From contig NW_024704742.1 of the NCBI RefSeq assembly GCF_018977255.1, positions 128,714,001-128,778,000 on the forward strand: a stretch of 64,000 nucleotides of DNA, given 5' to 3'. The DNA comes from Callorhinchus milii (taxonomy: Eukaryota). Below, one piece after another: positions 1,836 to 55,167 of the stretch (position 1 is its first letter; every line of letters begins with the position of its first letter). The notes beneath the pieces are model-generated. The model was not told the origin of the DNA and made no database searches. It saw nothing but the letters and a program-made list of their open reading frames with translations. Position numbers and translations under genes: made by a program.

Positions 1836-2024
1836 TTCCATCTTGTACTGAATGCTTTGTAAGAAGTCCGAACTGGAAGAGCTAAGGGTTTCCCTTCCGC
1901 AAAGACCTGGCAAGTTACGTAAAGATCAGAGCATGTTTCCTGATACAGGCCAGAAAATTTAAGCAATGGATCCTCTAGAAGAGCTTTGTAGCTTTTCTGC
2001 TCTCGTTTTCCTTCCAAGCTTCCT
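1836..2024 (-). CDS. PIK3C3: PIK3C3/Vps34 coding exon 2 (C2 domain start: [62 protein letters not shown])
   Basis: Near-identical to vertebrate Vps34. Acceptor ctacag|A at 2025/2024 and donor AA|gtaagt at 1836/1835. The exon is 189 bp and phase-compatible with exon 1 (AT+A = Ile). Confidence 0.98.
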
Positions 2025-4954: not shown

Positions 4955-5022
4955 ATCTTGAGCTGGACGTTGATGTCCAGGTCACAGCTGTAAACATAAC
5001 AGAATCTCTCGGTGTCACCCAT
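4955..5022 (-). CDS. PIK3C3: PIK3C3/Vps34 coding exon 1 ([23 protein letters not shown])
   Basis: Minus strand reads ATG GGT GAC ACC GAG AGA TTC TGT TAT GTT TAC AGC TGT GAC CTG GAC ATC AAC GTC CAG CTC AAG AT|gtgag. This matches the vertebrate Vps34 N-terminus (human [23 protein letters not shown]). There is an in-frame TGA at 5034-5032 just upstream, a canonical donor, and the exon is 68 bp in phase 2. Confidence 0.97.
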
Positions 5023-5040
5023 CACAGACTCTCAACCCAG

Positions 5041-5500
5041 AGAGACACAGACAGACACACAGGGAGACACACACACACACACACAGGGAGACACAGATAG
5101 ACAGACACACACACAGGGAGACACAGACAGACACACACAGGGAGACACAGACACACACACACACACAGGGAGACACAGACAGACAGACACACACAGGGAG
5201 ACACAGACAGACACACACACAGGGAGACACAGACAGACACACACACACACACAGGGAGACACAGATAGACACACACACACAGGGAGACACAGACACACAC
5301 ACAGGGAGACACAGACAGACACACACAGGGAGACACTGATAGACAGACACACACAGGGAGACACAGATAGACAGACACACACAGGGAGACACTGATAGAC
5401 ACACACACACAGGGAGACACAGACACACACACACACACAGGGAGACACACACACACAGGGAGACACAGACACACACCGGGAGACACACACACAGAGAGAG
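5041..5500. repeat. Compound minisatellite, ~17 units of CAGGGAGACACAGAC(AG)(AC)n
   Basis: Directly visible tandem units anchored by GGGAGA with variable (AC)n spacers. It explains the low-complexity C/V/S and T/H/D ORFs in the track. Confidence 0.97.
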
Positions 5501-6620
5501 AGAGGGGCCCCGGGAGTGTGAGGAGAGGCTGTGTCGGGCCGCTGTGTGTCCTCGGGCTCTCAGGGCGGTGGCGGGCGGCTGAGCTGTTGTTGTTGTTGCC
5601 GCTGTCAGGCCGCCATGATGACCGGCCGCCGGCGGTTTATATCCGGGTCGCGGCGCCCGCCCCTGACTCGGGGGTTTTGGTCAGAAATGAAAATAAAAGC
5701 CCACCCAAAGTCCACCAAACATCACCCAAAAAACACAGCCAGCCCGGTATTTACCCACCCCTCGGCCCCTAATGGCACTGAGAGGCAGGGCGGGCGGACG
5801 GGCGGGCGGACGGGCCGAGCGTCGGGATTTTCATTTGTTTCCCAGTGAATCGTAAAACGTTTTGCGCGTTTCAGTTCGTGGATATAAATATCTCTCTGAA
5901 AAAAAATCTGATCTGTTTTGAGGAAATGGTTCAATGAGAGCCGCTCCCCCCCTCCCGCCCAAAGCCGCTACTTTTCCCCCCACCCACACACGCGCAGGAA
6001 ACAAACCCGCCCAATCGGGGGCGTGAAACCCGCCCAATCGGGGGCGTGAAACCCGCCCAATCGGGGGCGTGAAACCCGCCCAATCGGGTCACATTGGGCG
6101 GCACCGAGGTCACGCCCCCCCCCCCCACTCTCTGTCTGGAGCTGGTTGCCTGGCAACTGCTCACCCCCCCCCCCCCCCCCCAAGGGGCAGGGGAGAAGGG
6201 GGGAGCAGTTGCCAGGCAACTAGCTCCAGACGGAGAGTGGGGGGGGGGGGGGGGCGTGACCTCGGTGCCGCCCAATGTGCCCCGATCGGGCGGGTTTCAC
6301 GCCCCCGATCGGGCGGGTTTCACGCCCCCCGATCGGGCGGGTTTCACGCCCCCGATCGGGCGGGTTTCACGCCCCCCGATCGGGCGGGTTTCACGCCCCC
6401 CGATCGGGCGGGTTTCACGCCCCCCGATCGGGCGGGTTTCACGCCCCCCGATCGGGCGGGTTTCACGCCCCCCCGATCGGGCGGGTTTCACGCCCCCCGA
6501 TCGGGCGGGTTTGCTCCGAAGGGTCACCGAGATCTGAGTCCAGGCTGACGCTCCAGGGCGTGTTCCCAGGGGCGGGGAGCTCCGTATCGTCGGGGGGAGC
6601 TTCGGATGAGATGTTAAACT
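5480..6620. promoter_or_regulatory. CpG island / PIK3C3 promoter
   Basis: Very GC- and CpG-rich island in an otherwise CpG-depleted window, immediately upstream of the PIK3C3 ATG. Minus-strand TATAAA at 5641-5636, YY1/TISU-like CATCATGGCGGC at 5620-5609, and many GGGCGG boxes. Confidence 0.85.
6002..6513. repeat. Foldback-like inverted repeat with tandemly repeated outer arms
   Basis: Left arm has ~4 units of 23 bp (AAACCCGCCCAATCGGGGGCGTG). Right arm has 10 reverse-complement units of 23-25 bp. Inner arms 6090-6162 and 6203-6279 are reverse complements with 2 substitutions plus a C12/G16 length difference, around a 40-nt spacer. Confidence 0.95.
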
Positions 6621-6835
6621 GAGGTCCCGTCTGTCCCCCTTCGGGTGAACATTCCCATGGCGCTGCTTGAAGAGACGAGGGAGCTTCATCCGGCGTCCTG
6701 ACCAACAATACCTCACAGATAACATTGGTCATTCGCCTCCTCGCTGTTTTGCTATCCACAAATTGACCGCTGTGTCTGCCTACAGACGTTGCAATTGACA
6801 GCAATGACATCTGAAGCATTTTGTGGCGTTTCACA
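6535..6835 (+). mobile_element. Old DeuSINE (SacSINE1/AmnSINE1-like body), headless
   Basis: CCAGGCTGAC...TTCGGATGAGATGTTAAACTGAGGTCCCGTCTG...CCCATGGC...TTGGTCATT; colinear with the copy at 28983. Confidence 0.8.
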
Positions 6836-6923
6836 TTCCAATAATAAATAATCCTTGCATTTAATATAGAAGCTTTCATGTAGGCAGGATGTCTCAAAGT
6901 GCTTCGCAGGACTCGACTGTAAG

Positions 6924-12062: not shown

Positions 12063-12651
12063 AAGGTGGGATCATTTCCCAATGTCTCAGGTCAGAACTT
12101 TGAACTTATATATTTCAAGCTGACACTCCAATACAGTGCTACGATTATGCTGCATTGTTGGAGTTACCATCCTTCGGATGAGATATAGTCTGAATACACT
12201 TCACTTAACAGTATAAACAGTCAATAGCTTTGAGATGTCCTCCTGATGTGCATGGCATTATATCAAATGCAAGGATTAGTATTATTATAACCACATAGTG
12301 GCTCTGCTACCAAAACATTTTGGGATAATGTTGTATGATGAGGTATTTCAGATTGTTGACAGTGGGGCTTAATTTGCATGACTTCGTAAAGGAATCCCGA
12401 ATCTTAAGAAATACAGGAAAAAATCTCGTGAAAGACGCGATACAATTGTAATGTTGTTGTTGTAGCATTGTCTTGGAAAGTTCATGAAAGATGACGTTCA
12501 TTGGTATAGATCTGCACTGATGATTTAACTTAAGGGTGAGTTTCAACCAAATCTGGTTGCTGTGTTCTGATCTTAAATGCTATTGTAATATTTCAACAAA
12601 GATACTGCTCATTGATTCTCATCATGTGAGAGTAAATCAGTAATCTAGCAT

Positions 12652-13001
12652 ATAATAATAATCCTTGCATTTAATATAGTGCCTTATCACATCTTCGAGA
12701 CGTCTCAAAGCGCTTCACAAAATATACTGTCAAGTGAATTGACTGTATATTTTGTGGGTGAAACACAGCAGGCAATTACGCACAGCAATGTCCTACAAAC
12801 AGTCGTGGATTGAAGTGACCAATTTTTTTTAAAAAATTTTTGAAGGCATTAATCTCCCCGGAAAAGTAACAGCTGGGTTCCTACTTACTGCTAGGTAAAC
12901 AGAGGCATGTGGAGTAAGGAAACTTTTCACCCTGCCGGGAATCAAACCCAGGTTTCTCGCTTGCGAGGCGAGTGCTCTAACTACTGTGCTACAGGACTCC
13001 A
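12652..13001 (-). mobile_element. tRNA-derived SINE, long (older) subfamily
   Basis: tRNA head, internal CCTCTGTTTACCTAGCAGTAAGTAGGAACCC segment, Deu body and (ATT)n tail. Confidence 0.92.
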
Positions 13002-20163: not shown

Positions 20164-20478
20164 GTGGAGTCCTGCAGCTCAGTGGTTAGAGCACTCGCTT
20201 TGCAAGCGAGAGACCTGAGTTCAATTCCAGGCAGAGGGCGAAACCTTGGGCAAGTTTCCTTACTCCACACAGAGCCTAATAATAATCCCTCCAAAACCAA
20301 AAACAATAATAAATTGGTCATTTTCAATCTTCGACTGTTTGTGGGACATTGCTGTGCGCAATTGGCTGCCGCGTTTGCCCACAAATATACAGTCAATTCA
20401 CTTTACAGTGTGTTCTGTGAAGCGCTTTGGGACATCCTCCCGACGTGAAAAGCGCTATATCAAATGCAAGGATTATTA
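20164..20478 (+). mobile_element. Young tRNA-derived SINE, full length
   Basis: Near-identical to the copy at 4393. Confidence 0.95.
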
Positions 20479-20666
20479 GGTGGCATTACTAGAAATGCAG
20501 CCAGAGAGCACTATAACAAGGAAAGGTGTCTAAAGGACTCAACTTTAACAATCCCAGAATGACATGAAGAATTATAGAATTTATTTGAGTCATTCCGGTG
20601 TCTAACATATTTGGAAACCCATTACAGTGCTCAACAGTATCCAAACCACACTGAGAGTTCCACATA

Positions 20667-20989
20667 TAATAATAATCCTAGAATTTGATATAATGCTTTT
20701 TAAATGGAATAATGTGCACATCTTCTAGACGTCTCAAAGCGCTTCAGAGAATAAACTGTAAAGTGAATTGACTGTAAATTTGTGGGCAAAGTGGCAGCCA
20801 ATTGCGCACAGCAGTGTCCCACAAACAGTCGTGGATTGAGTGACCAATTTCATTATTGTTTTTTCTTGAGAGATTATTATCAGATGAGTGGAGTAAAGAA
20901 ACTTGCCGAAGGTTTCGCCCTGCCGGGAATCGAACCCAGTCTCGCTCTTGCAAGGCGATTGCTCTAACCACTGAGCTACAGGACTTCAC
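20667..20989 (-). mobile_element. tRNA-derived SINE inserted into a copy of the unclassified repeat
   Basis: Flanked by two colinear halves of the unclassified family (20585-20665 and 21005-21345). Confidence 0.88.
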
Positions 20990-22108
20990 ATATATATGTT
21001 ACTTACGAATGGAAATTCCTGTTGTCTAGAAAGGAATGCACACTCTCCCTGGAGGAATACACCCTTTGACTGACTGCTCACCTAATTCTGGAGAGTAGGG
21101 TTTGGATTTTCATGGTTAGTAGGAGCCTGTGGATATAATCTCTGTCCCAAGAGACTTGTCTGGTCCTCCGATTCCTGCAGACAGGCCAAGCTGGTCTGTA
21201 ATCAGCAGTGGCTTGGCGTTCTGTTGATCTGCTAAGCTAAGAAATTGGACTACTGAAATTAAACTAAATTCTGACACTCCATTGCCAAGCATGTCACCAG
21301 CTCCAAGGAGACCCCACTCACCCCTCCTCCTTGAGGATAGCATTACAAATAGGAAAACCATGCATGCTCCAACAAGAGATGTTTAATTCTTCATTTGAAA
21401 TGTTCATTCAAATAACAGGTGAAAATCCTGTCTCCAAGACAATTCCACAAGTGGGTAAAACCTTGCAGTTGGTTATGCATACAAATTCTGTAGACTGCTG
21501 CAGAAACGTCACATACTACTGAAGTAACTTTTATATTCATAGTCAAAATATGAGACATGCAGAAAGCAAATTATTGATCCAGAAAAGAGTGAAATAAGGA
21601 ATGAATCCATACAATCATAATAATCCTTACATTTGATAGCACTTTATCACAATGGGAAGACATCTCAAATGCTTCACAGAATTTTTACTTTTAAGTGTAG
21701 GCTTTGTATCTTTTGGGTAAATGCGACAGCCAATTTGTATACAGAAATGTCTCACAAACATTTTTGAATTCTGTGAATTCAGAAGATTGTCATATTTAAA
21801 TTCTGCTTGTACATAAGACAAGAACCATCCAAGGGTTCTCTAGCTAGTATGGGACTTCTTCCAGGATTAATCCAATCATTCTTGTTTCAAACTACTCAAG
21901 ATCATTGTTGATCTTTTACACCTTTGTCCTTTTTGGAATTAACACACGGAACATGTTGTTTTTCCATTCGCTAATATTAATGAAAAAGTTTGTTCGATAG
22001 CTTGTCCTTCATTAGCAGTGCATGTATCTAGTAGTACTAACAGGTAAAAATCCTTGTCTGTAAGACAATTATACACATGGCTAAAACATTGTAGTTGGTT
22101 ATGCAAAC

Positions 22109-22812
22109 ATAGAATCATAGAATTATACAGCACAGAAGGAGGCCATTCGGCCCATCATGTCTGTGCCGGGGATTTGAAAAGAGCTACCCAAATCAATCCC
22201 ACTCCCCCGCTCCCTCCCCATAGCCCTGCAAACTTGTCCTCCCCCAAATAATTATCTACTTTTCTCTTAAAAGTTGTTATCGAATCGGCTTCCACCACCC
22301 TTGCAGGCAATGCATTCCAGATCCAAACAACTCGCTGTGTGAAAACATTTCTGCTCACCTCCCCTCTGTTTCCTTTAACAACTATTTTAAATTGGTATCC
22401 TCGGATTATCGACCCACCCGCCAGTGGAAATAGTTTCTCATTGTTCACCCTATCGAATCCCCTCATAATTTTGAAAACTTCTATTAAGTCTCCTCTTAAT
22501 CTTCTCTACTCCAAGGAGAATAATCCTAGCTTCTCTAGTCTCTCCTGATAACTGAAGTCCCTCATTCCTGGTACCATCCTGGTAAATCTCCTTTGCACCC
22601 TCCCCAATGCCTTGACTTCCTTCCTAAAGCATGGTGCCCAAAACTGAACACAATACTCTAGCTGAAGCCTAACCAGTGTTTTATAAAGTTTTAAACAGCT
22701 GGCACAGACACGATGGGCCGAATGGCCTCCTTCTGTGCTGTATAATTCTATGATTCTGTGATCATAATTTCCTGACTTTTGTATTCTATGCCCCTATTTA
22801 TAAATACTAGTG
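22109..22812 (-). mobile_element. CR1 fragment with an internal inverted CR1 3'-end insert (22694-22760)
   Basis: Minus-strand GIEYKSQEIM..KLYKTLVRLQLEYCVQFWAP...MRGFDRVNNEKLFPL..FTQRVVWIWNALP, with an (ATTCTATG) tail. Confidence 0.93.
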
Positions 22813-23774: not shown

Positions 23775-24122
23775 CATTCACTTCAACTTTAAGATCCTCA
23801 CACTCATGTTCAAATCCCTTAACTCTCTGGCACCTCTCCACCTCTCCAATCTCCTCACTCCCCAATCCACCACCTCTGTTCGACTGGCACTGGCCTCCTA
23901 CTCATCCCTCACATGTGCTTTTAGTCACTATGCCCCTGAAACTCTGGAACACTCTCCCTTAATCCTCTGCCTTGTCCCCTCTCCCCTTTTTCAAGCCCGC
24001 CTGAAAACCTTCCTCTTCGACCATGCTTACGGTCACCTCACCCCCACCAGGCTTGAAGTTAGGCTCTGCCACTGAGATGCTGGGTGGAGGGCGCTATATA
24101 AGTGCAAGTTGTCGTTGTCGTT
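23775..24122 (+). mobile_element. L2 3' fragment
   Basis: FKILTLMFKSLNSLAP...RLKTFLFDHAY plus tail. Confidence 0.85.
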
Positions 24123-24212
24123 GAACAGCTGTTTGTTCAGTACACAAATTGGCTGCCATATTTACCTGCATATCATACAGTCACTCAACTTTGCAGTGAA
24201 AGGCACTATATT

Positions 24213-24530
24213 GGAGTCCTGTAGCTCAGTGGTTAGAGCACTCGCTTTGCAAGTGAGAGACCTGAGTTTAATTCCAGGCAGAGGGCGAAACCTTGGGCAA
24301 GTTTCCTTACTCCACACGCCTAATAATAATCCCTCCAAAAACCAAAAACAATAATAAATTGGTCATTTTCAATCTACGACTGTTTGTGGGACATTGCTGT
24401 GCGCAATTGGCTGCCGCGTTCGCCCACAAATATACACTCAATTCACTTTACAGTGTGTTCTGTGAAGCGCTTTGGGACGTCCTCCCGACGTGAAAAGCGC
24501 TATATCAAATGCAAGGATTATTATTATTAT
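24213..24530 (+). mobile_element. Young tRNA-derived SINE, full length, with TATATT target-site duplication
   Basis: TATATT at 24207-24212 and again at 24528-24533. Confidence 0.95.
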
Positions 24531-24669
24531 ATTAAATGTAGGTATTATTATTATTGTTTTATTAATTATTATTTTGTTGTTGTTTTATTATTGTTATTAT
24601 TAATGTTAATAAGGCTTGGCAAAGTTTTAAAGTTTATAAAAAGGTTGTGTTCTGCATTTTTCACGTTTG

Positions 24670-24872
24670 TACAACAACAACTTGGATTTATATAGCGCCC
24701 TCCACGCCAGACGGCGTCTCAGAGCGTTTCACAGTAACGGATCTCAGGTCCGAGCCAGGGGGAGGGGGAGAAAGGTGACCAAAGGCGCGGTTGAAAAGAA
24801 AGGTCTTCAGCCGAGACCTGAAAGTGGGAAGAGAGAGGGCGAGACGAAGAGAGTGAGAAAGTGAGTTCCAGA
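24670..24872 (-). mobile_element. L2 3' end (same family as 7977 and 37735)
   Basis: Nearly identical to 7977-8180. Confidence 0.9.
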
Positions 24873-54538: not shown

Positions 54539-54840
54539 TATTTATATCAAATGCAAGGATTATTATTATGGAGCCAGCTCAACCCTAGGGAACAGTTGTT
54601 CAGCTAAAAAATGAGCTTCTATCCATAATGAATATTACGGTTAATTGAAGCCGTGAGTTCAGACTGCCAAGGTACTCTACGTACAGAATACAGTTGAGAG
54701 TTTTCATGAAGTACTTCTATTGTGTAACTGTTTACAACAATCACAAAGGACAACTATTGCTAGGGGGTCACTTAGCTAACCTGCTGAATTTTTTTTAGTA
54801 AAACGGCTTACCTCTCACCAAACAGTGTCCATTATTCCAA

Positions 54841-55167
54841 ATAATAATAATAATAATAATAATAATCCTTGCATTTGATATAGCGCTTTTCACGTCGGGA
54901 GGACGTCCCAAAGCGCTTCACAGAACACACTGTAAAGTGAATTGACTGTATATTTGTGGGCGAACGCGGCAGCCAATTGCGCACAGCAATGTCCCACAAA
55001 CAGTCGTAGATTGAAAATGACCAATTTATTATTGTTTTTGGTTTTGGAGGGATTATTATTAGGCGTGTGGAGTAAGGAAACTTGCCCAAGGTTTCGCCCT
55101 GCCTGGAATTGAACTCAGGTCTCTCACTTGCAAAGCGAGTGCTCTAACCACTGAGCTACAGGACTCC
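54841..55167 (-). mobile_element. Young tRNA-derived SINE, full length
   Basis: Near-identical reverse complement with a long (ATT)n tail. Confidence 0.95.

Follow-up and report, generated by a model that had tools for sequence, protein, structure and literature searches.

A nested GC-rich near-palindrome of GC-box/CCAAT repeat units in the CpG island at the 5′ end of Callorhinchus milii PIK3C3

Results

The 5′ end of PIK3C3 and its surroundings

The window analysed in this study is a stretch of 64,000 nucleotides from the Callorhinchus milii assembly GCF_018977255.1 (contig NW_024704742.1, positions 128,714,001 to 128,778,000 of the forward strand), and all coordinates below are counted from its first letter. 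It carries the 5′ end of PIK3C3 on the minus strand. The first coding exon (4955–5022, minus strand) encodes residues 1–22 and part of codon 23 and is identical to the first 22 residues of C. milii PIK3C3. The second (1836–2024, minus strand) encodes residues 24–85, in the PI3K C2 domain; it matches the PI3K_C2 profile and residues 24–85 of solved PIK3C3 chains, and among the best 120 of its 367 matches one that is 100% identical is C. milii PIK3C3. A CpG island extends over 5500–6840 and has the element described here on its upstream side. The CpG observed/expected ratio is 0.8–1.2 in the flanks and arrays of the element as against 0.40 for the window, and the CpGs of both the left and the right array are intact. 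An earlier note on this DNA, made from the letters alone, had placed a palindrome in the promoter CpG island of PIK3C3, and that setting is borne out, the gene by its two exons and the island by its CpG ratios.

A putative core promoter lies at 5610–5641 on the minus strand, where we take the motif at 5641–5636 to be TATA-like and that at 5616–5610 to be YY1-like. These two sites would put the transcription start site (TSS) of PIK3C3 near 5610 on the minus strand. The palindrome lies about 390 bp upstream of that predicted TSS, and the 400 bp given in the earlier note holds in this sense. A 460-bp compound CA/GA-rich repeat (5043–5501) lies between the predicted TSS and the start codon, in either the 5′ UTR or an extra intron, and a small GC-box tandem at 5788–5815 (12-nt unit, 2.3 copies) fits the G4 pattern.

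Our ORF scan covered 143 of the 149 window ORFs of at least 85 aa, the six low-complexity frames over 4974–5769 being excluded. The long ORFs of 6840–64000 had no Pfam match except reverse transcriptase fragments, and no head-to-head gene upstream of PIK3C3 was seen among the 143 ORFs, a scan that short exons would escape. Judged by its sequence, the DNA upstream of PIK3C3 resembles a gene desert filled with retroelements. An Rfam search of the window gave 13 matches, all of them tRNA-like and none in the element, which fit tRNA-derived SINE heads. Closely spaced inverted pairs at 20164–20989, 12197–12741, 24080–24710 and 54543–54882 (77–100% alike over 27–274 bp) are probably SINEs or SINE tails. 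A 60-bp inverted repeat at 22108–22167 and 22701–22760 (96.7% alike, 534 bp apart) encloses an ORF resembling a LINE 3′ end, and there is a single N in the window, at 2603.

Anatomy of the palindrome

Self-comparison and folding confirmed an interrupted palindrome of 512 bp at 6002–6513, about 73% GC, whose arms are about 96% alike outside the centre. As single-stranded DNA it folds at −285 kcal/mol, compared with −138 ± 5 for 100 shuffles, none of which folded as well (z = −28). The left array (6003–6088, plus strand) has 3.7 identical 23-nt units, each made of a GC box, a CCAAT box and a GGGCGTG site. The right array (6280–6512, minus strand) has 9.8 units of 23–25 nt in which a G replaces the A of CCAAT. 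Between them lie a left inner arm (6090–6162, plus strand) with a C12 run at 6115–6126, a 40-nt centre (6163–6202) in which a C18 run stands opposite a G-rich 20-mer, and a right inner arm (6203–6279, minus strand) with a G16 run at 6239–6254. The inner arms differ by two substitutions (6133/6232 and 6144/6221) and by C12 versus G16, and the same C-variant terminal unit stands at both ends of the element. Every measurable point of the earlier description (the 512-bp palindrome, the unequal outer arrays of 4 and 10 units, the nearly identical inner arms around 40 nt, the matched termini) therefore holds, with the exception that the inner domains had been called unique. This is true in the window of 6127–6162; 6090–6120 is an inverted, degenerate and older copy of the unit (minus strand), a likeness equalled by 7 of 2000 shuffles, and it pairs with the last units of the left array in a nested hairpin (6063–6126; z = −3.4, 0 of 200 shuffles as good). 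Since the inner domain opens with this older inverted unit, the symmetry of the element is nested.

Several further features go beyond the earlier note. The two arrays carry a fixed A/G difference, all four left units reading CCAAT and all ten right units CCGAT, and the arms also show a T/G difference at 6089/6280. The uniformity of the A/G split within each array indicates that each was homogenised or expanded separately after the arms parted. The G of the right array gives each unit a perfect 10-nt palindrome, whereas the corresponding small palindrome of the left array is imperfect. Within the unit, GC boxes follow one another in opposite orientations, which makes the array self-complementary in part. 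Mismatches are concentrated in the centre (6 of 19 columns, versus 4 of 91 further out; Fisher p = 0.0017), where the pairing is no better than would be expected from composition (fold z = −0.16), and the centre is possibly a decayed arm. The window contains 12 occurrences of the unit's 17-nt core, every one within the element, against an expectation of 0.05; a self-search of the window found no second copy of either the element or the core. Unit relics and decayed inverted or direct repeats were sought in the flanks in six comparisons, and all six were no better than shuffles (31–179 of 300).

The 512 bp of the element hold 16 of the 38 GC boxes in the window and 14 of its 18 GGGCGTG sites, together with six CCAAT boxes and two X-boxes. 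We assign the GC-box and GGGCGTG sites to Sp/KLF factors, the CCAAT boxes to NF-Y and the X-boxes to RFX, presumably their usual binders. There is one palindromic X-box in each inner arm (6145–6157 and 6208–6220) by the restricted consensus given in PMC2375033, a consensus that fits 13 places in the window (17 strand matches); the same source states that an X-box alone does not predict regulation.

Sequencing contigs

Five sequencing runs of one organism cover part of 5505–6900, and four of them were aligned over 5505–6310. The contig records were filtered, and the results below refer to the 22 of 79 loose ends and the 31 records (32 of 192 pieces) that were listed. Between 0.37 and 0.41 of the sequence words of the region are present in the runs, a fraction to be read with the fact that polymorphism of the flanks alone removes many words. 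A 576-nt contig of run X1 (5505–6032) spans the left flank into the array and stops at 6032, the very point at which the array must interrupt a 31-mer graph. The contig is another haplotype sharing the left junction; the promoter flank is polymorphic, with 4 base differences and 18 gap letters between X1 and the window over these 528 bp. Both alleles at 5738/5741 are present in run X5, which is guessed to be RNA and covers 5708–5889 and not the putative first exon.

The right array predicts a 54-nt contig (two mismatches and one gap, range 2–53 on the left array) and a 55-nt contig (two mismatches and two gaps, range 2–54). Both were found in X1, X2 and X3 (records 3, 10 and 21, and 4, 9 and 20, respectively), the match being one of length and counts, not of letters. 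The right-type array is thus present in contigs of three runs besides the window, and the left junction in one run (X1). In X1, X2 and X3 the 54-nt contig was 3.5, 3.3 and 1.3 times as deep as the 55-nt one, as against 5.5 predicted, for arrays that are collapsed in the contigs; ratios below 5.5 give a hint, and no more than a hint, of unit-number variation between individuals. No listed contig bridges the inner arms or the centre. The depth was 0–3 in the bins 6099–6152, 6207–6233 and 6261–6287 in all four aligned runs, and a hole of this kind proves nothing; palindromes are under-represented in amplified libraries and short reads, according to PMC4057610, which cites unpublished observations. 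Matches on C- or G-runs and contig joints were set aside, by inference, as low-complexity or poly-G artefacts. Record 31 of X5, 784 nt long and of depth 38, has a C-run and a G-run as its two ends and is either unrelated sequence or a sequencing artefact.

The contigs also contain related units from elsewhere. On 6003–6088, contigs of X1, X2, X3 and X5 show units of about 19–25 nt that share one 17-nt core and differ in spacers of 4–8 nt. Of the 22 listed loose ends, 13 fall on the left array and are shorter unit variants (about 19–22 nt), and the flanks of some are unrelated. About two units each, within otherwise unlike sequence, are present in record 5 (341 nt) and record 17 (522 nt), which may be a single locus, and X2 has a further 225-nt loose end with an unrelated flank. 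The unit therefore has relatives at no fewer than two other loci, in a family that is small and diverged. The match of record 17 begins at 6002, the terminal base of the element, which hints at a defined end. The listed contigs from other loci contained no match to the inner arm at 85%. At another locus the small palindrome of the unit is perfected as AATT, in contrast to GATC in the right array here.

Discussion

The nested palindrome was, in our opinion and with restrained confidence, built locally by template switching within a self-complementary GC-box/CCAAT minisatellite, after which the two arrays grew separately, and it is probably a cluster of Sp/KLF, NF-Y and RFX sites at the edge of the island. 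As a starting point, the edge of the PIK3C3 CpG island would have held one minisatellite of a small, dispersed GC-box/CCAAT family. The inverted unit would be what an initial short template switch left behind. In a later fold-back switch, priming would have taken place at the C-run/G-run centre, the array and inner segment would have been copied backwards, and the return at a unit boundary would have given the matched ends; this return is the weak step of the scheme. In the right arm one A-to-G change would then perfect the small palindrome of the unit and spread as the array grew by slippage or unequal exchange, and the mismatches of the centre would now damp hairpin instability. Taken together, two switches and separate array growth would explain why the hairpin is nested, why the inner arm is doubled, why the arrays are split into A and G forms and why there is no target-site duplication (TSD).

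The element has what a template switch is expected to leave, namely a reverse-complement copy near its template with unique flanks and no TSD, and the absence of a second copy in the window, the lack of a depth excess and the nested inverted unit also favour a local origin, as does the existence of both perfected forms of the small palindrome, GATC here and AATT elsewhere. The perfecting of near-palindromes and the creation of inverted repeats are typical results of short-range template switching according to PMC7954356, and yeast ODIRA junctions are described in PMC10766186 as arising at short inverted repeats 40–80 bp apart. The oppositely facing GC boxes provide many short inverted homologies within the array. 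The C. milii PRDM9 lacks the SSXRD domain and its expression was not detected, and in species that have no functional PRDM9 recombination takes place at promoters and CpG islands (PMC5519329); by this analogy the PIK3C3 island may be a break hotspot. The likeness to template-switch and ODIRA junctions is thus in the local reverse-complement copy without a TSD, the perfected near-palindromes and the short runs of complementary sequence in a centre of about 40 nt. The element differs from them in that its switch points are deduced, and in having later array growth in each arm and no inverted triplication of its flanks. There are also points against a local origin. Both arms end at the same base, which a random switch point rarely gives and a terminal inverted repeat always does, the match of record 17, from another locus, starts at 6002, and the unit must have spread to other loci somehow.

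The earlier note likened the palindrome to foldback-type elements, of which FB and sea urchin TU are examples, and offered two origins, a foldback element domesticated as a promoter or an inverted duplication in situ. The likeness of architecture agrees with the layout of unequal outer tandem domains and an inner domain described in PMC4079207: long terminal inverted repeats form most of the element, and the tandem outer domains differ between the arms (4 versus 10 units). Of the two origins the local inverted duplication fits better; the transposon is retained on account of the matched ends and the related units elsewhere, and domestication as a promoter is unsupported. We consider it possible, if doubtful, that the element is an old non-autonomous foldback-like DNA transposon derived from a Mutator, P/Galileo or hAT element. 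The arrays would then be former transposase binding sites in long terminal inverted repeats, and a copy that landed at the edge of the island would have been kept or tolerated as its repeats double as Sp/NF-Y sites. Such an origin is consistent with the published layout, with ends that match to the base and with variant units of about 19–22 nt with unrelated flanks at no fewer than two other loci. It also fits reports that tandem repeats within Galileo terminal inverted repeats bind transposase (PMC3688188) and that hAT transposases with CGGBP-type domains prefer CGG-containing motifs of their own subterminal regions (PMC8097297). However, Tetris foldback copies carry TSDs of 8–10 bp (PMC4079207), and none is present here, as the earlier note had already stated: at the exact ends the mismatches number 5 of 8, 5 of 9 and 9 of 10 for 8-, 9- and 10-mers, and the best of 81 boundary pairs still has 3 of 8. 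Between 5850–6001 and 6514–6700 there is no repeat of at least 9 nt with at most one mismatch, and the lack of any TSD of 4–11 nt stands against a transposon despite arms that are about 96% identical. An empty-site comparison found the left junction occupied in X1, in an aligned stretch that ended at 6310. The other loci listed have the unit alone, without the inner arm. The depth of the exact units in X1 is 12.3, 23.7 and 6.8 versus single-locus predictions of 24, 53 and 9.8, and this gives, weakly, no sign of many identical copies, summed contig depth being no copy number, the records being filtered and palindromes dropping out of short-read data (PMC4057610). None of the 143 ORFs scanned in the window matched a transposase family (three matched RVT_1), and the elephant shark mobilome is almost all retroelements, with DNA transposons scarce, according to PMC4350176. 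The element shares with Drosophila Tetris and Galileo the long inverted arms, unequal outer tandem repeats, inner domain and non-coding middle (PMC4079207 and PMC3688188). It differs in its missing 8–10-bp TSD, in having no flanking domain outside the arrays and a length of only 512 bp, in an inner domain that is partly an older inverted unit, and in that neither a second whole copy nor a transposase was found in the data searched. The element thus looks like a foldback element, but with its TSD failure we do not class it as a member of the group.

Two further explanations concern whether the palindrome is real and whether its symmetry is selected. That the arrays are real and the doubled inner segment is an error of assembly or of long-read fold-back seems to us very unlikely. 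It would be consistent with the three bins of depth 0–3 in four runs and with the fact that no piece spans the centre, although a single missing collapsed contig would account for all three holes. Against it, fixed differences separate the arms in each of the 14 units and at three other sites, and both flanks are unique. All three DNA-like runs have G-type units of 24 and 25 nt that agree with the prediction in length and in the numbers of mismatches and gaps, and X1 has the A-type junction; arm-specific CCAAT and CCGAT units mean that one arm is not a fold-back copy of the other. Least probable of all, in our judgement, is a selected structural switch, in which a cruciform extruded by transcription-driven supercoiling, or a G4 or i-motif at the C- and G-runs, would alter the access of Sp, NF-Y and RFX and tune PIK3C3. 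The very stable fold and the distance of about 390 bp from the predicted TSS are in keeping with a switch, and the persistence of the palindrome could imply selection, as the human genome largely lacks long stable inverted repeats, which are unstable once introduced (PMC12887540). With such instability elsewhere, the mismatches in the centre may themselves be why the palindrome persists. Against a switch stand a longest perfect stem of 37 bp and a mismatched centre of 82% GC, which should hinder extrusion from duplex DNA. Hairpins are likely on single-stranded DNA of the palindrome, and a cruciform from the duplex is predicted to be less so. The G4 proposed in the earlier note comes down to the pure G16 and C18 runs, the only places in the element with the canonical pattern (2 of 20 such matches in the window), and this dependence on pure G-runs also argues against a switch. 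In our main reading the symmetry is probably a by-product, able to form hairpins when the DNA is single-stranded, rather than a selected switch. A viral terminal hairpin, considered in view of the nested hairpins and of work on RFX and AAV ITRs, gained no support, as the tandem core pattern occurred in none of the viral and none of the metagenome contigs searched.

The simplest role for the element as we read it, a locally built repeat, would be that of a two-way cluster of putative sites which binds Sp/KLF, NF-Y and RFX and helps to hold the island open and unmethylated. Sp1-type sites are known to protect CpG islands from methylation. Minisatellites (VNTRs) that bear transcription-factor sites form a known class in promoter CpG islands, and the element has their tandem GC-rich units with factor motifs at the edge of a promoter CpG island upstream of a housekeeping gene, the TSS here being a predicted one. 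In contrast to them, its two arrays face each other as a palindrome and its unit is shared with other loci. With the palindromic AT-rich repeats (PATRRs) of the human genome it has in common a length of several hundred bases and a short asymmetric centre, and it differs in its GC content of about 73%, its location in a promoter island and the lack of a known rearrangement.

Literature searches on PIK3C3 promoter palindromes, foldback elements of C. milii and vertebrates, C. milii DNA transposons and shark palindromic repeats returned no account of the element or its motif, and nothing on the 17-nt core in either orientation; they covered the literature and not the repeat collections Repbase and Dfam. 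The ingredients are of known kinds, and what is new is the way they are combined: a factor-site repeat shared with other loci makes up a nested, GC-rich palindrome in the promoter of a housekeeping gene. In our best reading the element shows clearly, on a small scale, how successive template switches and the growth of repeats have remodelled the edge of a CpG island. In this reading it is also a case of a housekeeping gene with a GC-rich near-palindrome as a tolerated neighbour, of use in studies of palindrome stability and not a new system. It is unlikely, though of wider consequence, that the element is one copy of a GC-rich holocephalan foldback-like mobile family that leaves no TSD, is lost from short reads and has been seeding Sp/KLF–NF-Y–RFX modules at CpG-island promoters. 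Were the units indeed mobile, with a bias to promoters, their family would count as foldback-like, in a genome reported to have few DNA transposons, and would supply promoter modules.
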